Notes under the pieces: generated by a model | Databases searched by the model: none | What the model was told of the DNA's origin: nothing | The model's input: the letters and a program-made list of their open reading frames with translations, nothing else | Program-made: the position numbers and the translations under genes | DNA from: a virus | Lineage: Duplodnaviria; Heunggongvirae; Uroviricota; Caudoviricetes | Length of the DNA stretch: 64,000 nucleotides | Direction: 5' to 3' (one strand) | Virus record (IMG/VR): IMGVR_UViG_3300028048_001412 | Span: 173,858-237,857 of that record | Part shown: in pieces, positions 1 through 13,006 of the stretch | Numbering within the stretch: position 1 is the first letter of the stretch | How the letters are laid out: each line of letters starts with the position of its first letter

Positions 1-77
1 ATATCACGTAATTGTAGAATAATATGGTAATTCACTTAGAAATAAGAGATGATGGTTCAATTCCATTCAATAGATAT
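1..77 (+). ncRNA. tRNA-like element with GAAA tetraloop in place of the anticodon loop
   Basis: D arm GAAT-AATATGGTA-ATTC, CTTA-GAAA-TAAG, T arm GATGG-TTCAATT-CCATT, irregular acceptor; may be cut by the window edge. Confidence 0.55.
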
Positions 78-89
78 TTATTATAATAT

Positions 90-162
90 AGTCCTTTAAC
101 TCATTGGGCAGAGTGTCTCTCTTACAAAGAGAAAGCAATTGGTTCGATTCCAATAAGGACTA
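90..162 (+). tRNA. tRNA-Val(TAC)
   Basis: Acceptor AGTCCTT/AAGGACT, anticodon arm TCTCT-CTTACAA-AGAGA, T loop TTCGATT; no encoded CCA. Confidence 0.95.
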
Positions 163-165
163 CAA

Positions 166-343
166 TATCCGACGGGATAGACAAGAGGTTCGAAACTCTC
201 GGAAGATTAAAAGGTTTTCTAATAAAGATATGAAAGTAAGATTATAATATGTCTTATGAAATCAGGAAAAGTTAGATGTAAAGCAAACACTGGGAGAAGT
301 GACATAATCCCTTGGCAGTGCTCCCGAATCAAAATCTTTTAAT
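166..343 (+). ncRNA. unidentified structured RNA between tRNA-Val and tRNA-Leu
   Basis: T-loop hairpin GAGGTTCGAAAC; 13-bp closing helix 206-218/331-343; possible pseudoknot CACTG/CAGTG with GGAG/CTCC. Confidence 0.45.
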
Positions 344-352
344 AAGCAATAA

Positions 353-426
353 GCTCTCGTGATGGAATAGGAATACATGCTTCTCTCAAAAAGAAGATTT
401 TAAGAGTTCAAATCTCTTCGAGAGTA
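353..426 (+). tRNA. tRNA-Leu(CAA), short variable loop
   Basis: GCTCTCG/CGAGAGT acceptor, CTTCT-CTCAAAA-AGAAG anticodon arm, 5-nt variable loop, T loop TTCAAAT. Confidence 0.9.
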
Positions 427-440
427 TCTTTATAAATTAC

Positions 441-520
441 GCCCTTATGATGAAATTGGTATACATATGGGACTTAAAATCCCAGGCGAAAGCATATCGG
501 TTCGAGTCCGATTAAGGGCA
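441..520 (+). tRNA. tRNA-Leu(TAA)
   Basis: GCCCTTA/TAAGGGC acceptor, TGGGA-CTTAAAA-TCCCA, long variable arm with GAAA loop. Confidence 0.95.
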
Positions 521-538
521 TTAATTCAATGCAAAAGT

Positions 539-642
539 AATGATGAAACGGAGTGTAATGCAATACGTAAGGTGTGGATAATATTCAGAAGTAATTCCAC
601 TGAGTCACTCATCATTTTGTAGGTAATCCACATTAAAACCTA
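539..642 (+). ncRNA. unidentified structured RNA
   Basis: AATGAT/ATCATT and GAGTG/CACTC stems; hairpin TAGGT/ACCTA whose loop complements 571-579. Confidence 0.4.
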
Positions 643-662
643 TATTGAATTTTATAAATTAT

Positions 663-734
663 TCCTCTATGTTGTAATGGTTAGCATACTTGACTGTCTA
701 TCAGGAGATGAGAGTTCGATTCTCTCTAGGGGAG
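663..734 (+). tRNA. tRNA-Asp(GTC)
   Basis: TCCTCTA/TAGGGGA acceptor, CTTGA-CTGTCTA-TCAGG, G discriminator. Confidence 0.93.
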
Positions 735-737
735 CAA

Positions 738-807
738 GCAACCTGATGGTGTATGGATGCACACCGCGTAGAGCGGAGGTAATGGTTAGATTCCATTGAT
801 GGTGGCG
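738..807 (+). ncRNA. tRNA-like element with shortened anticodon arm
   Basis: D arm GTGT-ATGGAT-GCAC, CCGC-GTAGA-GCGG, T arm AATGG-TTAGATT-CCATT, imperfect acceptor. Confidence 0.55.
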
Positions 808-952
808 AAGGTATCTCTTAAATAAAAGAAATGAAGTTTGGTGCAATATTCGCGATAAAAGCCAACGTAGTAAAAGTAAGTGATAAGAGATTAGCTTAAT
901 TAAGTACAAATTAAGTGGTATAAGGCATCTTTAAATTCTTCCTTATACATTT

Positions 953-1027
953 GGTTCTGTAGCTTAGCCCGGTTAAAGCAGTGAGCTGTTAACTCAAAGA
1001 TCCTTGGTTCAAATCCAAGCGGAACCG
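953..1027 (+). tRNA. tRNA-Asn(GTT)
   Basis: GGTTCTG/CGGAACC acceptor, loop CTGTTAA, T loop TTCAAAT. Confidence 0.95.
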
Positions 1028-1053
1028 TAAATATTCTTTATGAATATTAAAAT

Positions 1054-1127
1054 GCACATTTGGAGAAGAGGTCTAACTCGGTGAGCTGCAACCTCACTAT
1101 TCACTCGTTCGAATCGAGTAATGTGCT
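1054..1127 (+). tRNA. tRNA-Cys(GCA)
   Basis: GCACATT/AATGTGC acceptor, GTGAG-CTGCAAC-CTCAC, U discriminator. Confidence 0.95.
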
Positions 1128-1189
1128 TATATAATAAAGTTTTTGCAAATATCAAAATACAAGAAATTAATCTTTATTATTTTTAATAA

Positions 1190-1262
1190 CGGGACATGGC
1201 AGAGTCAGATATGCACTGGATTTGGGATCCAGACCACGCGGAGGCAGAGTCCGCTGTTCCGT
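1190..1262 (+). tRNA. tRNA-Pro(TGG), non-canonical D/T loops
   Basis: CGGGACA/TGTTCCG acceptor, CTGGA-TTTGGGA-TCCAG, T arm GCGGA-GGCAGAG-TCCGC, D loop has AG instead of GG. Confidence 0.85.
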
Positions 1263-1267
1263 CTTAG

Positions 1268-1540
1268 CCAATGTGAAAAGATATATCATTGGGTGCAATT
1301 ATGAGTAGTGTTAGGTAAGGGAGTACAAAAATAATTGTAGAATATTTTATAATATTATTAAAATTGCTTCCCTTATATTTATAGACAAAGTTTAAGGCCT
1401 TAATTACTTATCTATAAATGCAACCCTTAATAATCAAAAATATAAAGGTCCAGATTGATAATGACTGTAGAAGTAGTTATCCATTTTATGAGGTGTTAGA
1501 GCCGCAAACAGGGTGACAAAGCAAGTCCCAACTTAAAATG
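1268..1540 (+). ncRNA. unidentified multi-helix RNA after tRNA-Pro
   Basis: Helices 1268-73/1287-92, 1291-97/1419-26, 1316-23/1368-75, 1378-85/1411-18, 1482-88/1534-40; no ORF. Confidence 0.5.
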
Positions 1541-1618
1541 ATAAGGGTTCTTTGGTATTTTCTTCCTTAACTCCATTTCATTATTATAGATAATGGAGAA
1601 TAGAAAATATTATTATAT

Positions 1619-1703
1619 CGCGGGATAGTGTAATAGTAACATGTCGGGCTCATAACCCGAAGAATCTGAAAAAGTGTTGGTGGTGCAAATCCATCTCCCG
1701 CTA
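1619..1703 (+). tRNA. initiator tRNA-fMet(CAT) with extended variable region
   Basis: C1:U72 mismatch, three consecutive G-C pairs in TCGGG-CTCATAA-CCCGA, T loop TGCAAAT, 18-nt variable region. Confidence 0.88.
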
Positions 1704-1814
1704 CTAAATCATTATTAAAAATTTCCATAGTGAGTCCAGGCACTATGACATCCATTACTTTTTGATAATGATAAAAAGTTTCTAAAAATTCTTCTTCAAA
1801 AAGAAATATAATAT

Positions 1815-1896
1815 TGGTGGGTGGCAGAGTTGGTCGATTGCGCCTGACTGTAGATCAGGATCGAAAGACGCGTGGGTTCGAATCCTACCCCACCAA
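1815..1896 (+). tRNA. tRNA-Tyr(GTA)
   Basis: TGGTGGG/CCCACCA acceptor, CCTGA-CTGTAGA-TCAGG, long variable arm. Confidence 0.95.
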
Positions 1897-2008
1897 CACG
1901 CTTAAGAATAAAGAATATGAAGAATCATAATTAGTCGACGAGTTATGTATTAAAGATTATTTCGAGTAGGTTTTTATTCCATCGCTTTTTTGAAATCCTA
2001 CATTTTAT

Positions 2009-2081
2009 GGATTGTAAGCTAATCTAGTGAAAGCGCCTGGCTGAAGACCAGGAGAGCAACGAGCGTAACGTTGACAATCCA
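2009..2081 (+). tRNA. tRNA-Phe(GAA), non-canonical D/T loops
   Basis: GGATTGT/ACAATCC acceptor, CCTGG-CTGAAGA-CCAGG, T arm CAACG-AGCGTAA-CGTTG, D loop AG. Confidence 0.87.
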
Positions 2082-2087
2082 CTCTTT

Positions 2088-2175
2088 GGACACTTAACCC
2101 TAATTGGTAAGGGAACGGTCCTGAAAACCGTTAGTAATCCGAAAGGATGTGAAGGTTCGAGTCCTTCAGTGTCCG
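2088..2175 (+). tRNA. tRNA-Ser(TGA)
   Basis: GGACACT/AGTGTCC acceptor, loop CCTGAAA (C at position 33), long variable arm, G discriminator. Confidence 0.9.
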
Positions 2176-2190
2176 TAATTAGATGATTTA

Positions 2191-2250
2191 ATAGGTGAGG
2201 TTCGAAGCCCACTTCCCCGATGAAACAAATTATTGTGAGGGGAAACCTAT
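2191..2250 (+). ncRNA. small structured element with T-loop
   Basis: ATAGG/CCTAT, TTCCCC/GGGGAA, GAGGTTCGAAGC T-loop hairpin. Confidence 0.35.
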
Positions 2251-2329
2251 ATTTCAGAGGATATTAAATTAACGGATAATTCTAGAAATATCTGTTGTAA
2301 TCGCAAAAGATGAGTTATCTAATTTTTAA

Positions 2330-2414
2330 GGGGAATTGTGTGAGTGGTTGAAACAGTTCGTCTACTAAACGAATAAGCAGAAATGCTTCAAAGGTTCGAA
2401 TCCTTTATTCCTCG
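2330..2414 (+). tRNA. tRNA-Ser(ACT)
   Basis: GGGGAAT/ATTCCTC acceptor, TTCGT-CTACTAA-ACGAA, long variable arm AAGCA-GAAA-TGCTT, G discriminator. Confidence 0.9.
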
Positions 2415-2448
2415 TTTTGATAAAAGTATAATTTTATAAGAGGAAAAT

Positions 2449-2766
2449 ATGGCTAAAAACTCTCATTTAAAAATCGCAAATGATAAAATAAAAGAACTTA
2501 AATTAAAGACTAGAAGATTTTTAGATGAAGGTAAATATAACGAAGAAAAAGATTACGGAAAGATATATGGAAATATAAAAGATAAATGTTATAATTGCAG
2601 TTGGGTAAGTATTCTCTTTGATAAAAAGAATTGTAGATTTATTCCTTATTGTAAATTTCCGGGACATAAAGGAAGACTTGTAAATGTAGATTATAATAAA
2701 TGGAATACAACTTATGATGAAAGAGAACGAATATTTTTATCGAAAGTATTAAAGAAAGATTGTTAA
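2449..2766 (+). CDS. hypothetical Cys-containing protein inside tRNA cluster
   Basis: 105-aa ORF, RBS GAGG, upstream GTATAAT. Confidence 0.75.
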   Translation: MAKNSHLKIANDKIKELKLKTRRFLDEGKYNEEKDYGKIYGNIKDKCYNCSWVSILFDKKNCRFIPYCKFPGHKGRLVNVDYNKWNTTYDERERIFLSKVLKKDC

Positions 2767-2772
2767 ATATAT

Positions 2773-2844
2773 GTATCTATAGTATAATGGATAGTACAGA
2801 AGCCTTCTAAGCTTCCAGTCAAAGTTCGAATCTTTGTAGATACG
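2773..2844 (+). tRNA. tRNA-Arg(TCT)
   Basis: GTATCTA/TAGATAC acceptor, GAAGC-CTTCTAA-GCTTC. Confidence 0.95.
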
Positions 2845-2846
2845 CT

Positions 2847-2922
2847 TGCGGTTGAGTGAAACGGATTTATCACGCTGTCCTCATAAGTCAGAGATACCAT
2901 GGTTCGACTCCTGGAACCGCAC
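2847..2922 (+). tRNA. tRNA-Met(CAT), probably elongator
   Basis: TGCGGTT/AACCGCA acceptor, loop CTCATAA, bulged T stem. Confidence 0.8.
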
Positions 2923-2968
2923 TTATAAAAACTTTGAGAATAGCTGTAAATATTCTCTAAACAAATGT

Positions 2969-3086
2969 TCAATCTTTATTACAGTAAGGGTTGAGATAAT
3001 AAGTTTATTTATAGAAACGCTAACAGACGCCTATAAGAGTTCCTCGGCGAGAGTCGGTGGAAAGCTCCAGTGAAGTTCTTATTATC
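2969..3086 (+). ncRNA. unidentified structured RNA
   Basis: 9-bp closing helix 2995-3003/3078-3086, TATAG/CTATA, TCGGC-GAGA-GTCGG GNRA hairpin. Confidence 0.45.
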
Positions 3087-3091
3087 ATTTT

Positions 3092-3162
3092 GCTCTTATA
3101 GCTCAATGGTAGAGCCTCGGCTTTGTAACCCGATGATATCTGTTCAATTCAGATTAAGAGCT
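3092..3162 (+). tRNA. tRNA-Thr(TGT)
   Basis: GCTCTTA/TAAGAGC acceptor, loop TTTGTAA. Confidence 0.93.
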
Positions 3163-3167
3163 TTTAT

Positions 3168-3241
3168 GAAGCTATAACTCAATCTGGAAGAGTCCGCGAC
3201 TTTTAATCGCGTGGTTGCGAGTTCGAGCCTCGCTAGCTTCA
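3168..3241 (+). tRNA. tRNA-Lys(TTT)
   Basis: GAAGCTA/TAGCTTC acceptor, CGCGA-CTTTTAA-TCGCG. Confidence 0.95.
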
Positions 3242-3245
3242 CTTC

Positions 3246-3322
3246 GGAGACATAGCTCAGTCAGGTCTTAGAGCATCCGGCTCATAACCGGGCGGTCCAA
3301 GGTTCAAATCCTTGTGTCTCCA
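3246..3322 (+). tRNA. tRNA(CAT), Ile2-like (lysidine type)
   Basis: GGAGACA/TGTCTCC acceptor, TCCGG-CTCATAA-CCGGG; resembles Firmicute tRNA-Ile2; Ile2 versus Met assignment is inference. Confidence 0.8.
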
Positions 3323-3334
3323 TTTAAAATATAT

Positions 3335-3407
3335 AGGTCTATGGTGTAATCGGGTAGCATTATGGTCTCCAAAACCACAGGTGAGAGTTCAAATCTTTCT
3401 AGACCTG
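3335..3407 (+). tRNA. tRNA-Trp(CCA)
   Basis: AGGTCTA/TAGACCT acceptor, loop CTCCAAA. Confidence 0.95.
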
Positions 3408-3416
3408 TTTATATAT

Positions 3417-3493
3417 AAAGGTGTAGCTTAATTTGTTAAAGCATTTGTCTCTTAAACAAAAGGATAAGAGTTAGAGTCTCTTCACCTTTACCA
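3417..3493 (+). tRNA. tRNA-Lys(CTT), CCA encoded
   Basis: AAAGGTG/CACCTTT acceptor, TTTGT-CTCTTAA-ACAAA, T loop TTAGAGT, ends ACCA. Confidence 0.92.
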
Positions 3494-3498
3494 AATAT

Positions 3499-3570
3499 GC
3501 GGATGTAAGCTAATGGTTAAACGACATCTCTGATAAGGATGTTATAGTAGTTCGATTCTACTCATCCGTA
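3499..3570 (+). tRNA. tRNA-Ile(GAT)
   Basis: GCGGATG/CATCCGT acceptor, CATCT-CTGATAA-GGATG; weak D stem. Confidence 0.88.
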
Positions 3571-3604
3571 CTAAAATTAATAAATAAAAAGTATAATATA
3601 TAAT

Positions 3605-3871
3605 ATGAAAATAAGAAAAGAAACAATTGAATATTCAAATAAGATATTGGATAATATTTCTAAAAATGAAGAAATATTAAATAAGAAATTTATAATTTAT
3701 GTTCAGAACAAAGGACAAGAAAAATTATATGTATTATTTAATGAAGATAATAATGAATATAAATTAGTAAATGATAAATCAATAATTATTCCTATAAGTT
3801 GTATTCATTCTATTTATATTACTAATGAATTATTAGGAAAATATGATATTATAGGAAGAGAGTCGATTTAA
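3605..3871 (+). CDS. hypothetical protein
   Basis: 88-aa ORF between tRNAs, upstream GTATAAT. Confidence 0.7.
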   Translation: MKIRKETIEYSNKILDNISKNEEILNKKFIIYVQNKGQEKLYVLFNEDNNEYKLVNDKSIIIPISCIHSIYITNELLGKYDIIGRESI

Positions 3872-3874
3872 TAT

Positions 3875-3945
3875 AGCGGATTGGTGTAGTGGTAGCACAA
3901 GCGACTTTGACTCGCTTAGGAGAAGTTCAAATCTTCTATCCGTTG
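3875..3945 (+). tRNA. tRNA-Gln(TTG)
   Basis: AGCGGAT/ATCCGTT acceptor, AGCGA-CTTTGAC-TCGCT. Confidence 0.93.
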
Positions 3946-3947
3946 CT

Positions 3948-4021
3948 GTGGCTGTAGCTTAATTAGGTAAAGCAGTGAGCTGTGACCTCACCATATACCG
4001 GTTCAAGTCCGGCCTGCCACC
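3948..4021 (+). tRNA. tRNA-His(GTG) lacking encoded G-1
   Basis: GTGGCTG/CTGCCAC acceptor, GTGAG-CTGTGAC-CTCAC, C73, base -1 is T. Confidence 0.9.
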
Positions 4022-4212
4022 TTAAAATAATAAAAGTTTAAAAAATTTATATATTTTATAATATAAATATATAAATTTTATGGGTAAGATAGAATTTATA
4101 ATAATTAAACATATTATTATAATTATTATAATTCGTGGGAGTTTATGAAACTGGTTCTTACCCAACTGGTTTATAAAACTCTCATATTTTTTATAAGAAA
4201 GGGTAAGTTCTT

Positions 4213-5145
4213 ATGGAAAAGATAAAAGAACATAAATTAGTATGTGAATGTGGAAGAACTTTCAAAAACTCTCAAGCTCTTTTTGGACATTATAGTCATT
4301 GTGAAAAACATTTAGGCCACAAACCAATAAAAAGAAATTTTTTAGCAGAATGGGCTAAAAATCATAAAGGTAAAAATAAAAAATATAAAGATAAAAATTA
4401 TAATGAATCTGGAAATTGTCGATATTGTGGTAAAGAATGTAAAAATCAAAATTCTTTAAAACAACACGAAATAAGATGTAAAGAAAATCCGAATAGAATT
4501 ATAATAATAAATAAAGGAAATACTATAAGTCATACTGCTTGGAATAAAGGATTGACAAAAGAAACTGATGAAAGAGTAAAAAAGAATGGAGAAACTCTAT
4601 CTAAAAGAATAAAAGAAGGAAAAACGACCCCTTCTTTTAAAGGAAAACATCATAGTAAATCAACAAGGGATTGTATGTCCAATAAAGCAAAAGAAGGAAT
4701 AAAGAATGGAACTCATTATGTGTGGCAAATAAGGAACGGACATTCTTACCCAGAGAAATTATTTATAGAAATGCTTAAAGATAAATTTAATTATATAGAA
4801 AATATAAATTATGAAACTGAGTATAAAATAAATACTAAATTTGCTGATTTTTATTTTAAGAATTTAAATTTAATAATTGAAATAGACGGAACTCAGCATT
4901 ATAAAACCAAAAATGATATTTATAGTGATATAAAACGAGATAACTTATTTAAGAAAGAAAAATACAATATAATAAGAATACCTTGGGATAATTATAAAAA
5001 GAATACGGATTTTTGGATAGGTTTTATAAATAAGATATTTTCTAATGATAATTTAATTGAATTATGCAGAATAAATAGAAAATTCATTGAACATAAAAGA
5101 AAATTAACATTTAATAAAATAAATATAATAAAAACAACAGGATAA
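4213..5145 (+). CDS. free-standing homing endonuclease (Zn fingers, NUMOD-like repeats, DUF559/PD-(D/E)xK-like C-terminus)
   Basis: CECGRTF..HYSHC, AWNKGLTKETDERV, FKGKHHS, ADFY..LIIEIDG.QH motifs. Confidence 0.8.
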   Translation: MEKIKEHKLVCECGRTFKNSQALFGHYSHCEKHLGHKPIKRNFLAEWAKNHKGKNKKYKDKNYNESGNCRYCGKECKNQNSLKQHEIRCKENPNRIIIINKGNTISHTAWNKGLTKETDERVKKNGETLSKRIKEGKTTPSFKGKHHSKSTRDCMSNKAKEGIKNGTHYVWQIRNGHSYPEKLFIEMLKDKFNYIENINYETEYKINTKFADFYFKNLNLIIEIDGTQHYKTKNDIYSDIKRDNLFKKEKYNIIRIPWDNYKKNTDFWIGFINKIFSNDNLIELCRINRKFIEHKRKLTFNKINIIKTTG

Positions 5146-5156
5146 GATAACGTAAC

Positions 5157-5181
5157 GTGAGTTCAAGTCTCATCTGGCACC
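5157..5181 (+). pseudogene. 3' tRNA fragment (T arm plus acceptor 3' strand, His-like)
   Basis: GTGAG-TTCAAGT-CTCAT followed by CTGGCAC-C; tRNA-His ends CTGCCAC-C; no matching 5' half seen nearby. Confidence 0.6.
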
Positions 5182-5207
5182 TTATAAATAATTGGAGGAA
5201 TTATTTT

Positions 5208-5978
5208 ATGAATGAAAAAATGAAAAGAGAAGTTGAAAAAGCAATTTTAAATAAAGATTGGGGAGAATATTTAAGACAAAATATTTGGAAAGATCATAAC
5301 AATGTTAAAAAATACATTCCTGCCATGGATGAAAATTATATTAAAAATTGCATTAAATGGTTAGATGAATCTCTATGCGGAAAATATATACCAGATAAAG
5401 ATTTAAGAGCTCAATTTAAATCTTTATTTCAAAATGAATTAAGCCATAGAGATACTACTAATAGATTAGAACAAAAATCAATTAATGTAGATAATTTACC
5501 TTCTTTATTAGATGTTCAAATAGAAGAATTTTTAGATACATTAAAAGTAGAGAATTTAAATTTAGATATTTCTTCGAGAAAATATTGTAAATTAAATAAA
5601 GAAGATGTTTTAAAATATTTATCTAAAAAAGGATATTCTAAATATGATTTAGATAAATATGGAAGAAATATTTATTCTACTTTAAATATAGTAGATGCTT
5701 ATTCAAATGATGTAATTTGCCCAGATCAAAACTCATTTAAAAAAGCAATGAATATAAAAGAAGATTCTGTAAATCATCCTTCTCATTATAATAATTCTTC
5801 TATGGAAGCAATAGATGCTATAGAAGCAATGATAGAACCTTATGGAAAAGGAGCAGTGGAAGGATTTTTAGCAGGACAAGTTCTTAAATATATATGGAGA
5901 TTTCCTTTTAAAGAAAATCCAAAAAGAGATTTAGAAAAAGCAAAATGGTATTTAGATAGATTAATCAAAAAATATTAA
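5208..5978 (+). CDS. protein with C-terminal DUF3310 (T7 gp1.7-like nucleotide kinase) domain
   Basis: VNHPSHY...EAIDAI...VLKYIWR..FK..PKRDLEKAKWYL; GGAGG RBS before ATG 5208. Confidence 0.85.
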   Translation: MNEKMKREVEKAILNKDWGEYLRQNIWKDHNNVKKYIPAMDENYIKNCIKWLDESLCGKYIPDKDLRAQFKSLFQNELSHRDTTNRLEQKSINVDNLPSLLDVQIEEFLDTLKVENLNLDISSRKYCKLNKEDVLKYLSKKGYSKYDLDKYGRNIYSTLNIVDAYSNDVICPDQNSFKKAMNIKEDSVNHPSHYNNSSMEAIDAIEAMIEPYGKGAVEGFLAGQVLKYIWRFPFKENPKRDLEKAKWYLDRLIKKY

Positions 5979-6008: not shown

Positions 6009-7940
6009 ATGAAAGCAGATTCAAAAAATTATTTAGTATTTGATAAGATGGCTCAAAAATTACAAATAACTCCTTGGTTTGAATTAGTAAATAATGAACC
6101 AAAAGTTAGTTTTGTAGATTGCATCAAGAACGGATTCATAGTAATTAACTATAAACATGAACCAAAAGATATTACTAAATCTATGTTTGAAATGTTAAAA
6201 TCTGACTTTTCAAGAAATAATAAAACATTATTTGGTAATTTTGAGAATGTAGTAAATATGACTGATGCCGAATACTATGCTCATCAAATCCTTCATTATT
6301 TTAGTACATATGGATTAGAATCATTAGGATTACAAGCTCATCCATATATACCAGCAAAAGAATTATGGGCTGGAAAAGATGAAGTATTGAAAGATATAAA
6401 TGAAGATGCTAAAATCACAGTTATAAGATTATTAGATGATGAAGATTACATCAATGAATTAACTTCTTATATTTGTGAAATGAAAGCTCCTAAAAATGAT
6501 ACATTATTTTATGAATATTGCTTTGATTTAATACCAAATTCAATTACTGAAAATGATATAAGAAGTTATGAAATGAAAGCGATATTCTATAATAAGAGAG
6601 GAATATATCCTAAGAATCCTATTGATTTTTTAAGATATGTAATATATTTAGCTATTGGAAATACTTTAATGATTAAGAATAAAGCAATGATGAATTCTAT
6701 TAAGAGTGTTTGGGATTCTAAATCTAAAGAAAAAATAGTAAATGCATTTAAATCATATGATTTAACTAAATTAGCATCTATATTTTATAGATTTAAACCA
6801 TTATTCTTATCATTTAAATCAGTAGATCCAAAAATAAAACCTATTATAAATAAGATAAGAAAACTTGCACCAACTTATCATAAACCATTAGAAGGATTAT
6901 GTGTTCAAAATGTATTTGAAATGAGTGATTATTTTACTCAAGATGAATTAAAACTATTCATTAAAGATATAGATACAAGAGATCTTTTCAAATTATTAAA
7001 TGCTTGGGCTAATGCTAATAATGAATATAGAATATTCGGAATTAGAAATGGAAAAGCATATGTAAAAGAAAAGACTCAAGATAAAGATCTTTACAATTCA
7101 TCTATGTTTAATACTGTAAAATCTATAATGGATGAGATAAATGATAGATATGCAAAGAAATTTGAAGGAAAAGCAATAATTATACCTTCATATATAAATT
7201 ATAGATTACCAATATCTGAAAAAGATATGGTTGGTAAATATCCAAATGGAACTTATTTAGAAGTAGGTAAAAATTCATTATCATTAGGAATTGCTTGGAA
7301 TAATAAAGAAGATAAATCAGGATATGATTATGATGGAAGAGTTGATATTGATTTATATTTAATATCTGCTACTAAAAGATTTGGATGGAATTCTTCAAGA
7401 ACAGATGGTGATATAATATATTCAGGTGATATGACAGATGCAACTAATGGAGCAGCTGAAGCATTCTATATAAATAATACAAATGATGATTATATTATAG
7501 ATACTAGATTATATACTGGAAATGAGCCTGTAGATATGAATTTATTTATAAGTAAGAAAAAGGTAGAAAGAAGTTATGGAAAAGATTATATATATGACCC
7601 AAATGAAGATATAATTCCAAATATACCACTTACTATAAAGAATGAAGGATTAAATATAGGATTATATCACGACGGAAAAGTATATTTATATAATAAATCT
7701 ATAAGTTCTGGTATAGTTCCTACTAGTCATTATGAATCATTCATAAAAGGATTAGTAGAAAAACTTGAAAAGAGTGTAGATTTAAAAGATATATTTGATA
7801 TATTAAAAGTTCCAGTTTATAATTCAATAGAAGATTTGAGAAAAGATTATGATAATACTCAAATAGAAGATGCTAATATAATTGATCTTGATCCTTCTAT
7901 TGTAACAGAAAAGACTTTATTTGATTTATTTGAGAAATAA
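6009..7940 (+). CDS. helical (putative ROT/TROVE-like) protein with C-terminal TerD-like domain
   Basis: C-terminal DIDL..GWN..YSGDMTDA.NGAAE resembles TerD; N-terminal QILHYFSTYG and LASIFYRFKPLFL motifs recalled from this phage family; the ROT-like call is inference. Confidence 0.6.
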   Translation: MKADSKNYLVFDKMAQKLQITPWFELVNNEPKVSFVDCIKNGFIVINYKHEPKDITKSMFEMLKSDFSRNNKTLFGNFENVVNMTDAEYYAHQILHYFSTYGLESLGLQAHPYIPAKELWAGKDEVLKDINEDAKITVIRLLDDEDYINELTSYICEMKAPKNDTLFYEYCFDLIPNSITENDIRSYEMKAIFYNKRGIYPKNPIDFLRYVIYLAIGNTLMIKNKAMMNSIKSVWDSKSKEKIVNAFKSYDLTKLASIFYRFKPLFLSFKSVDPKIKPIINKIRKLAPTYHKPLEGLCVQNVFEMSDYFTQDELKLFIKDIDTRDLFKLLNAWANANNEYRIFGIRNGKAYVKEKTQDKDLYNSSMFNTVKSIMDEINDRYAKKFEGKAIIIPSYINYRLPISEKDMVGKYPNGTYLEVGKNSLSLGIAWNNKEDKSGYDYDGRVDIDLYLISATKRFGWNSSRTDGDIIYSGDMTDATNGAAEAFYINNTNDDYIIDTRLYTGNEPVDMNLFISKKKVERSYGKDYIYDPNEDIIPNIPLTIKNEGLNIGLYHDGKVYLYNKSISSGIVPTSHYESFIKGLVEKLEKSVDLKDIFDILKVPVYNSIEDLRKDYDNTQIEDANIIDLDPSIVTEKTLFDLFEK

Positions 7941-7998
7941 TAATTTTATAATATATTTTATAAGTATTTCTCTTATAAATCATGTATAATATATTTAT

Positions 7999-8489
7999 AA
8001 GGCAGAAATGGTTCCTATTTTTACTTTAAAAAGCAGGTTTTACCATGGGCCTTTTGATATAATAGATGTTGTTAAGCAATTTCACTATTACTAAACCAAA
8101 GAAGAAGTGCTTGAGTTAGGATTCTCGGAAATAAAAATCCATTTTTAGAACAAGTTGGCAAAAGAACTTCCTTTAAACCACAAAATATTAAGCCTTCGGG
8201 CTTATCTAGTTTAGTTCTAGCTAACGTTTAGAGAATAGGACATAAAATACTTCCTTTATATCTTAATAGGTAAAGAGAAGACCCTATATTCTCTACCCAA
8301 AGAGAATGTAGTGGATTATAGTATTCGTCCTGGGATTAGTTTTAGGCATATAATACTTCCTTTAAAAAATTCAAATTGATAATTGAAAAAATAGTATTCG
8401 CCTATTTAGTAAAAAGCTTATTTGTAGAAAAAGTCATAGAAACTTCCTATATTTAAGAAATAATTCTAATATGGTTTTAGTTTCCGATT
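7999..8489 (+). repeat. array of five structurally conserved RNA modules (UUCC motif)
   Basis: Modules 7999-8053, 8154-8225, 8236-8332, 8343-8404, 8432-8489 share outer stem, asymmetric internal loop, inner stem, TTCCT and TA linker, with compensatory changes. Confidence 0.8.
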
Positions 8490-8500
8490 GTAAATAAGCG

Positions 8501-8578
8501 TATAGTTGAACTTAAATTATGATGGTCATAGCCTTCGCCTATGGAGGTGATATATAGGTTCGAATCCTATCAACTATA
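8501..8578 (+). ncRNA. tRNA-like domain (no D stem, loop CCTTCGC)
   Basis: 8-bp TATAGTTG/CAACTATA, CATAG/CTATG arm, T arm ATAGG-TTCGAAT-CCTAT. Confidence 0.7.
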
Positions 8579-8600
8579 TTTGTTCAGTTAAATGATAGAT

Positions 8601-8632
8601 GAGGGATTCTTTAATAGGATCCCTCTATTCTT
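8601..8632 (+). terminator. terminator-like hairpin closing the non-coding unit
   Basis: GAGGGATTC-TTTAATA-GGATCCCTC followed by a weak T-rich tail. Confidence 0.55.
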
Positions 8633-9664: not shown

Positions 9665-10459
9665 ATGTTAGGACCACAGCATAAGCAATTCAATATACCA
9701 TTTAGTATTTTAATATCATGTATATTAGTAGGAATATTAGGATTTAGTCCAATATTCTTCGCTTCTATTCCAGTAGGAATATATACATATTCTTTATGCG
9801 ATATAGATGCTCAACATGTTCCAAGAAGATGGAAAATGTTAAAAACATTATGGATATCTTTAATAGTAAGTATATTTATAGTATCTTTAGTTGCAACTGG
9901 ATATTTTGGATATAATATATTTACACAAAAAATGAATTATAATGATGTAATTCAATATTTCGGATTATCTTTAGGAGTAGTTTTATTTTATATATTGTGT
10001 TTCAAATATAATAGTTCTTCTAAAGGAAAATGGTTAACTGCACATAGAGGATTTACTCATAGATTGATAGTTGTTATTATCCCTATGTTAGTGTTTTGGC
10101 AATTAAATAGTTTAATTCCTAATTCAAATGATAAACAAATAATTCTTATAAAAACAGCGCAAGTATTTTTAGCAGGATTAAGTACAGGAATATTAGGACA
10201 TCAATTAGCCGATCTGGAATGTGCTCGAGGTATAAAAGGTTGGTTATGGCCTTTATTTCCAGAAACAACTATATCTATAGGAAAAGCTATAAGCGCAGAT
10301 CCTAAAGATCCTAGAAAACCACACAAAAGTTCAATCATATATACTAATATTAGTTGTGTAATATTTATAATATTAACAATTATTATTTTAATTAAATTCG
10401 GAGATAATTTTATCAAATTATTGCCTATTCAAATAAGAGAATTGATAAATGTTAAATGA
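9665..10459 (+). CDS. membrane metal-dependent hydrolase (YdjM-like)
   Basis: Multiple TM helices, N-terminal H, DID, HRGFTH, GHQLAD motifs. Confidence 0.8.
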   Translation: MLGPQHKQFNIPFSILISCILVGILGFSPIFFASIPVGIYTYSLCDIDAQHVPRRWKMLKTLWISLIVSIFIVSLVATGYFGYNIFTQKMNYNDVIQYFGLSLGVVLFYILCFKYNSSSKGKWLTAHRGFTHRLIVVIIPMLVFWQLNSLIPNSNDKQIILIKTAQVFLAGLSTGILGHQLADLECARGIKGWLWPLFPETTISIGKAISADPKDPRKPHKSSIIYTNISCVIFIILTIIILIKFGDNFIKLLPIQIRELINVK

Positions 10460-12564: not shown

Positions 12565-12636
12565 CTTCCAATAGTTCAATGGATAGAATATAAGGCTACG
12601 AACCTTAAGATGAGAGTTCGAATCTTTCTTGGAAGT
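12565..12636 (+). tRNA. tRNA-Arg(ACG)
   Basis: CTTCCAA/TTGGAAG acceptor, TAAGG-CTACGAA-CCTTA; directly upstream of tmRNA. Confidence 0.95.
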
Positions 12637-12640
12637 TTAT

Positions 12641-13006
12641 GGGCTTGACAGGTTTCGACCGGCTAAATGGATAAGCAAGGACACCCGTTAGAGTACAGAG
12701 TTCGTCATACTCGGTACAATCGAATAAACGCTAATAACGTTGTTCGTGCTAATAGAGTAACTAGACCAGTTGCTCTTGCAGCCTAAACTAAATCCTTTAC
12801 TATTTAATAGATAAAGGTAGTTGGTAAGAGTAATTCCTATAAACTCTTAAACTTAATCTGATTAGGATAAGCTTTGAAAAGCGTTAGATGAGTTATATTC
12901 TAATTTCTAGACTCATTGAAACTATTTAAGAAGTTAGAGATGGTGTTAATTCCTTAAATTGAAAGATAGTTGGGACAGGGAGTTCGAATCTCCCTCAGGT
13001 CCACCA
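12641..13006 (+). ncRNA. ssrA: tmRNA; tag (A)ANNVVRANRVTRPVALAA at 12730-12786
   Basis: 5' GGGCTTG...GGTTTCGAC, 3' T arm TTCGAAT plus CAGGTCC-A-CCA, G3:U70 Ala determinant, ATAAAC-GCT resume context, tag ends ALAA-stop. Confidence 0.95.

Follow-up and report, generated by a model that had tools for sequence, protein, structure and literature searches.

A TerD-family gene and its linked handle RNAs in a large phage genome: a possible counterpart of the Ro60/Y RNA systems

Do an unfamiliar phage protein and the tandem array of small structured RNAs beside its gene belong to one system, and if so, does that system resemble the one formed by Ro60 proteins and Y RNAs? The question is raised by a 64,000-nucleotide (nt) stretch of phage DNA (the window: positions 173,858 to 237,857 of the virus record IMGVR_UViG_3300028048_001412), in which the gene for a 643-amino-acid (aa) protein is followed by five RNA modules. 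An earlier note, made from the sequence alone, had described a helical protein with a TerD-like C-terminus, then five modules and a tRNA-like domain, an observation that is confirmed here, and had proposed that they form a divergent Ro/Y-RNA-like system. On balance, the comparisons described below make it rather probable that the protein and the five small RNAs together form a single ribonucleoprotein, following the Ro60/Y-RNA plan with a different protein and probably serving the handling of tRNAs or other structured RNAs.

Handle RNAs and their linkage to the gene

The 760-nt gap 3' of the gene folds better than shuffled sequences (z -4.3), and contains the five modules (7998-8491), a tRNA-like element and a terminator-like hairpin (Table 1). 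Each module is closed by a "handle" of common plan. Its helix P1 terminates in G-C pairs and leads into an asymmetric internal loop, where A-W-A faces a single C; a P2 helix of 6 bp follows, and UCCU opens the loop. Over the loci with homologues the consensus is rGGC-AWA-RRnnGU-UCCUAWW ... ACnnYY-C-GCCy. What appears to be a 5-nt bulge resolves to the 3-nt A-W-A loop opposite one C beside the 6-bp P2. That the modules are real structured RNAs, as the earlier note held, is borne out by covariation across 104 aligned modules: the two helices are paired in 94% of cells, and the covariation score (in which pairing at eight of the 12 counted pairs was forced by the structural descriptor used for selection) is 0.741, against 0.23 in shuffles, none of 500 reaching 0.741, and 0.11-0.20 when the partners are slid. 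The four pairs left free by the selection also covary strongly, as in columns 10/64 (AU in 47 modules and GC in 47) and 11/63 (GC in 69 and AU in 32), and columns 2/70, likewise free, are paired in 82 of the 104.

A covariance model built from this alignment (R1) scores the five modules at 25.1-43.3 bits and all else in the region of the array at 6 bits or less, with no further match in the window at E<0.4 and none elsewhere in the whole 284-kb phage genome. The descriptor itself has five matches in the array (8000-8489) and, elsewhere in the 64 kb, three on the + strand and 18 on the - strand. None of the window modules reaches the threshold of an Rfam family (Rfam 15). Their variable hairpins were also considered as mimics of anticodon loops, an idea that was dropped: 117 folded inserts show no enrichment of 7-nt loops and are mostly unstructured and A/U-rich. 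Some inserts are able to pair GGA with the conserved UCC.

Table 1. The TerD-family gene and the RNA unit following it in the window
Feature	Position	Strand	Basis	Handle and insert
Gene for 643-aa protein	6009..7940	+	Open reading frame; AlphaFold model	
RNA module 1	7998..8054	+	R1 43.3 bits; descriptor match 8000-8052	AGGC / AGA / AAUGGU-UCCUAUU ... ACCAU / GG / GCCU
RNA module 2	8154..8225	+	R1 28.2 bits, outside training set; descriptor match	UUGGC / AAA / AGAACU-UCCUUUA ... AGUUCU / A / GCUAA; UUCG-tetraloop hairpin at 8189-8204
RNA module 3	8236..8332	+	R1 25.1 bits with filters off, outside training set; descriptor match; inverted repeat	AGGAC / AUA / AAAUACU-UCCUUUA ... AGUAUU / C / GUCCU; insert 68 nt, hairpin at 8284-8311
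RNA module 4	8342..8405	+	R1 42.1 bits; descriptor match	UAGGC / AUAU / AAUACU-UCCUUUA ... AGUAUU / C / GCCUA
RNA module 5	8430..8491	+	R1 39.0 bits; descriptor match	AGUC / AUA / GAAACU-UCCUAUA ... AGUUUC / C / GAUU
tRNA-like element closing the array	8501..8578	+	Sequence; Rfam tRNA 17.3 bits against a gathering score of 29	
Terminator-like hairpin, 10 bp (5 G-C), then U-rich tail	8601..8625	+	Terminator scan: 3 such sites against 0.5 expected	

The ends of the RNA unit have features of their own. A TATAAT at 7985-7990 lies 8-10 nt 5' of module 1; a scan for sigma-70 promoters is uninformative in such A+T-rich DNA (22 sites against 26 expected). The tRNA-like element, which lies outside every handle, has an 8-bp acceptor-like stem, a 5-bp arm with the loop CCUUCGC and a canonical T-arm, and lacks a D-arm; it falls below the tRNA threshold (RF00005), ARAGORN makes no call there, and it may act as a processing or stabilising signal. 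The terminator-like hairpin is likely to be the 3' end of the unit.

Co-occurrence of modules and homologues had been set beforehand as a test of the proposal, and it is extensive. Among viral loci with a homologue, 81 of 84 contain R1 matches at E<=0.01 (232 matches, every one on the strand of the gene), and two of the three without a match have almost no upstream sequence available. Bacterial and archaeal loci, which span many phyla including Promethearchaeota, Thermoplasmata and Pacearchaeota, yield 73 matches in 52 of 70 loci; here too every match is on the strand of the gene, and most are no more than 500 nt upstream of it. In a control of 61 genomes from one bacterial family (~330 Mb), the single genome with the protein has the sole R1 match, whose end is 27 nt upstream of the match to the protein, and the 60 related genomes without the protein have no such RNA. 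By the descriptor, nearly every locus has one to seven tandem copies on the gene's strand.

The array is upstream of the gene in most loci and downstream in the window and in four others (L001, the closest relative of the window at 56% identity, L005, L027 and L043), while in Phass-1-like phages it is found ~1.3-1.7 kb downstream, past other open reading frames (ORFs). In Phage Phass-1 itself (L002, code-15 clade), three small ORFs separate the homologue from the handle array, and the homologue adjoins a cluster for NAD salvage (nicotinamidase, PRPP synthetase, nicotinamide phosphoribosyltransferase). Another structured RNA, RAGATH-33 (RF03102; 129.9 bits, above the gathering score), occurs ~1 kb downstream of the handle array of L005, at 7136-7263 of this 136-kb phage contig.

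Genes for tRNAs are frequent company. The TerD-family gene is inside tRNA arrays in the window and in the Synechococcus phages S-CRM01 and S-CBWM1, and beside a tRNA in Phass-1; tRNAs occur within 4 kb of the gene in 26 of 56 viral loci, all co-oriented, a count made without a baseline, which may reflect an enrichment of the gene near tRNAs. In two loci (L012 and L018) a module begins 2-3 nt 3' of a tRNA, suggesting that it may be released by tRNA-processing enzymes, and in S-CBWM1 one handle, 2.5 kb away from the gene, has a tRNA on either side.

A helical-TerD protein family

The 643-aa protein consists of an N-terminal helical domain (residues ~1-395, including an ARM/HEAT-like solenoid at ~160-335), a TerD-fold beta-sandwich (~396-575) and a short helical tail. 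Its AlphaFold2 model, made from a 64-sequence alignment, has a mean predicted local distance difference score (pLDDT) of 90.1 and a predicted template modelling score (pTM) of 0.91. Single-sequence and profile searches gave no match in Pfam, PHROGs, NCBIfam, PADLOC or PDB sequences, and 64 diverse homologues have no consistent Pfam match. The family is nevertheless large: at 50% identity, an exhaustive search found 1169 representatives, of which 627 fall below 1e-30, and the members come from phages, bacteria and archaea, Asgard lineages among them. Cultured carriers are S-CRM01 (g174) and S-CBWM1 (gp22), and structural relatives at a greater distance occur in phages of Campylobacter and Lactobacillus. 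Conserved motifs of the helical part include QxxHYFSTYG, IFxRYKPLFLAFK, IRRLAxxYHxPL and IRNGK. Whole-chain Foldseek searches of the PDB returned clostridial neurotoxins and the like, spurious multi-domain matches with a template modelling (TM) score below 0.12 that were set aside; cluster matches in the AlphaFold Database (AFDB) to a ZorC EH-domain protein (E 8.5e-7, TM 0.31) and to DUF4132 are leads only.

That the C-terminal domain is TerD-like, as first read from the sequence, is upheld by structure comparison of the model, in which it has the TerD beta-sandwich fold. At the level of profile hidden Markov models the TerD family, known from the tellurite-resistance (Ter) system (PDB 3ibz, 2kxt, 2qz7; PF02342), is silent here: PF02342 has no match at E<=0.1 in the 64 family members, and is present only in 22% of members of a related Atlas cluster. 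The residues invariant in the 64 sequences cluster in the TerD part (D446, D448, W460, G473, D474 and E484), and the acidic ones, with G473, may correspond to TerD Ca2+ sites. Unlike in the Ter system, the domain follows a fused helical part of 395 aa and is linked to an RNA, and it has no TerB, TerC, TelA or phosphoribosyltransferase neighbours, and so no Ter operon context. There is also a weak similarity in the TerD region (E 4.6e-4 for one family member) to the MXAN_6230/SCO0854 RING-domain proteins (NCBIfam NF041916; Prok-RING_4 PF14447 clusters), which are actinobacterial or myxobacterial and carry a RING domain, and an Atlas cluster with a RING domain in 21% of its members matches the Atlas's own model of the 643-aa protein with a TM score of 0.53 over residues 63-643. 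Prokaryotic RING fusions of these kinds (Prok-RING_4; NF041916) are found in distant relatives of the helical-TerD module in Actinomycetota.

Is the helical domain a TROVE domain, as in Ro60? Residues 1-392 folded alone (pLDDT 86.5) found nothing below E 0.08 in the PDB by Foldseek, nothing below 0.06 and no Ro60 in AFDB Swiss-Prot, and their own family only in the ESM Atlas; the matches that these and wide fold searches did return were generic helical repeats or members of the family, and gave the domain no identity. The TROVE profile (PF05731), which recognizes the Ro60 of a Bythopirellula chromosome (locus L108) at 1.9e-9, has no match at E<=0.1 in the window protein or any of the 64 homologues. 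Comparison of family profiles with a TROVE alignment built from that Ro60 gave an hhalign probability of 0.2%, with power limited by the shallowness of the TROVE alignment (effective number of sequences ~1.7). In place of the vWA domain that closes the Ro60 ring, the window protein ends in the TerD beta-sandwich. TROVE membership is treated as not demonstrated because profile, fold and hhalign searches all yielded no TROVE or Ro60; judged by its sequence and predicted fold, the protein does not appear to be a recognisable Ro60.

The Ro60/Y RNA plan and competing explanations

The resemblance to Ro60 (Rsr) with its YrlA and YrlB RNAs is one of plan. In both, a large helical-repeat protein with a C-terminal domain of metal-binding type (helical repeats and metal binding being putative in the TerD-family protein) is accompanied by one or several small RNAs, which have a bulged closing stem of 5' and 3' strands, a conserved purine-rich 5' motif and, in some, a permuted tRNA-like domain at the anticodon-arm place; the RNAs are often directly upstream of the gene, occur in phages, and have tRNA or RNA-repair genes near. 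In Thermus phage phiLo, two Y-like hairpin RNAs, Yrl1 and Yrl2, are directly upstream of a Ro60 gene (PMC12135203), a layout that matches the TerD-family gene and its upstream handles.

The likeness extends furthest in relatives with long inserts (L030 and L053), in which the handle encloses a permuted tRNA-like domain in the order T-arm, acceptor-like hairpin, D-arm. The long modules of relatives score 29-41 bits with the YrlA model (RF02553), against a gathering score of 69, those of L030 and L053 having 37-41 bits (E ~1e-6, local search). Several inserts of the seven-handle array of L030 (2842-3744) are permuted tRNA-like domains, in one of which CCA follows the acceptor strand, and one of its handles holds a bona fide tRNA-Ile (anticodon AAT, 66.8 bits). 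In the window, the modules enclose hairpins only, with no tRNA-like domain inside a handle, and YrlA has no match at E<=10 between 7941 and 8700.

There are also clear differences. Chen et al. 2014 (PMC4201824) link the 5' motif GNCGAAN0-1G of YrlA and YrlB to binding of Rsr; the 5' strand of the handle, GGC-AWA-RG, is in the same place and alike in form, but different in sequence, with an invariant A where YrlA has G. The modules (GGC-AWA-RR...UCCU, not GNCGAA(N)G) thus lack the canonical Y RNA motif, in agreement with the earlier note. Unlike Ro60, the TerD-family protein has no detectable TROVE or vWA_Ro60 domain, and unlike Y RNA systems this one has up to seven tandem modules and no known partner exonuclease. 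The gene beside the RNAs is the TerD-family gene, not one for Ro60/Rsr, and the phage's own 284-kb genome has no match to TROVE (PF05731) or RtcB. Of the proposed divergent Ro/Y-RNA-like system, then, the TerD fold and the co-occurrence of gene and modules are supported, as is the RNA side by the Y-RNA-like design of relatives' modules and their YrlA scores; the comparison of the N-terminal domain with Ro60, by Foldseek and by hhalign on a shallow alignment, found no Ro60 match. A fusion of ROT/TROVE with TerD, given in the earlier note as a described architecture, was not confirmed in the searched literature, and the roles in RNA surveillance or repair, or as a decoy, that the note suggests are putative. 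It seems unlikely that the protein is a genuine Ro60/TROVE homologue that has diverged extremely and exchanged vWA for TerD, and the system a remote branch of the Ro60/Y-RNA family; were this so, it would refine the idea of a Ro60-like ribonucleoprotein with a different protein and not contradict it.

One locus contains both kinds of system. On the Bythopirellula chromosome (L108, 7894-13777), a TerD-family gene with its own R1 handle is 2-6 kb from, and on the opposite strand to, a canonical Ro60 gene (the TROVE match noted above; vWA_Ro60 6e-13). With the Ro60 gene go a pair of YrlA-like RNAs scoring 52.1 and 36.5 bits, a PcfJ-like gene and at least 10 tRNAs in an array; both Y-type systems may be carried here by one mobile island. 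The R1 and YrlA models make no cross-matches there, so that in this single locus the two RNA-protein pairs look specific to their own partners. In a different locus (L085, a 285-kb contig labelled as a Lachnospiraceae metagenome-assembled genome and probably a jumbo phage), an exoribonuclease of RNase R/II type (RNB + S1; 2582-4750) is encoded ~1 kb upstream of homologue and handle, a single case that recalls the partnership of Ro60, Y RNA and PNPase.

If protein and RNAs do form one ribonucleoprotein, the protein would grip the handle, with conserved basic residues of the helical domain (R209, R261, K263, R284, R346) as the likely contact surface, and the variable insert would be a cargo or adaptor domain: hairpins in the window, and in relatives either a permuted tRNA mimic resembling YrlA or a genuine tRNA. 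The array would be transcribed with or just after the gene as far as the terminator-like hairpin, and would be cut into units, probably with the help of the tRNA-like element. The most likely job would be the handling of tRNA or other structured RNA in infection, whether as quality control, as protection or by presenting it to enzymes that process or degrade RNA, because the pair is so often inside phage tRNA arrays. A broader version is possible and is offered tentatively: the pair could represent a TROVE-independent class of ribonucleoproteins in phages, bacteria and archaea, in which a helical-TerD protein and a universal handle display a tRNA, a tRNA mimic or hairpins, and which phages carry among their clustered tRNA genes so that tRNAs can be protected, triaged or presented when host defence attacks the tRNA pool.

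No description of the pairing was found in the searched literature, the RNA belongs to no Rfam 15 family at the gathering score, and the protein to no Pfam family. A true ribonucleoprotein would bring the Ro60/Y-RNA theme a second protein family, a large one (1169 clusters at 50% identity), and an uncatalogued family of RNAs, abundant in the tRNA regions of phages, would receive a name. Such a system would also offer an approach to why Y-type RNAs mimic tRNA and what the tRNA clusters of large phages do beyond codon supply, and the cultured carriers S-CRM01 and S-CBWM1 make the hypothesis directly testable.

Several observations weigh against a single ribonucleoprotein. Since selection forced the other eight of the 12 counted pairs, only four handle pairs are unbiased evidence for the structure. 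The internal loops of window modules 1 and 2 deviate from the consensus, module 1 having AGA opposite GG instead of AWA opposite C. Among 147 neighbouring proteins in 40 cellular loci, surveyed for a conserved partner such as RtcB or PNPase, there is no recurrent family (none exceeds 4/147 among the top 25 families, and RtcB is not among these), so that a pathway cannot be read from context. Finally, in most viral and nearly all cellular loci the handles share the strand of the gene and immediately precede it, where they could be a 5' leader.

This last arrangement is what makes cis-regulation worth considering: the handles would be elements of the gene's own mRNA, at whose leader hairpins the protein or another factor autoregulates translation or termination, and there would be no free small RNAs. 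Autoregulation through leader hairpins has precedents in ribosomal-protein and threonyl-tRNA synthetase leaders, and in L108 the single handle stops 12 nt short of the ATG, with a U-run after it. This explanation is nonetheless improbable: the array is past the stop codon in the window and in L001, L005, L027 and L043, and beyond other ORFs in the Phass-1-like phages; loci have anywhere from 1 to 7 copies; some handles hold tRNA mimics, and one holds a real tRNA; the S-CBWM1 handle lies far from its gene between tRNAs; and the window array has a TATAAT and a terminator of its own. More doubtful still is a mobile cassette whose parts act separately, the RNAs as decoys or as processing punctuation of tRNA operons and the TerD protein as a Ca2+- or ligand-sensing stress or defence factor: sporadic occurrence (one of the 61 related genomes), mobile contexts, the RING fusions of distant relatives (an architecture not related to RNA) and the fact that classical TerD proteins are not known to bind RNA would all suit it, but the linkage across phages, bacteria and archaea, the strict same-strand adjacency, the covarying handles and the lack of a third conserved gene with the pair speak for functional interdependence, because such linkage would be hard to maintain otherwise.

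Setting of the locus in the phage genome

The window comes from a virus record of 284 kb with 92% completeness by CheckV; its G+C content is ~24%, and its genes run on one strand. The TerD-family gene and its RNA unit are placed between a tRNA array at 11-4021, with 19 ARAGORN calls and extra Rfam tRNA matches, and a further tRNA-Arg and transfer-messenger RNA (tmRNA) at 12565-13006. About 30 kb upstream of the window, at 144619-146863 of its genome, the phage has adjacent genes for RNA ligases of Rnl2 type (PF09414) and T4 Rnl1 type (PF09511).

Two genes (4213-5145 and 5157-5978) separate the tRNA array from the TerD-family gene: one encodes a zinc-finger/DUF559 endonuclease-like protein (homing-endonuclease PHROGs), the other a DUF3310 protein (PHROG "nucleotide kinase"). 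Just 3' of the RNA unit, at 9665-10459, is a gene for a YdjM-like inner-membrane protein (PF04307, 1.2e-7). Within the tRNA array, three Rfam matches on which ARAGORN is silent (11-71, 2009-2081 and 2847-2922) exceed the gathering score, with 33-42 bits, and may be further tRNAs or atypical ones.

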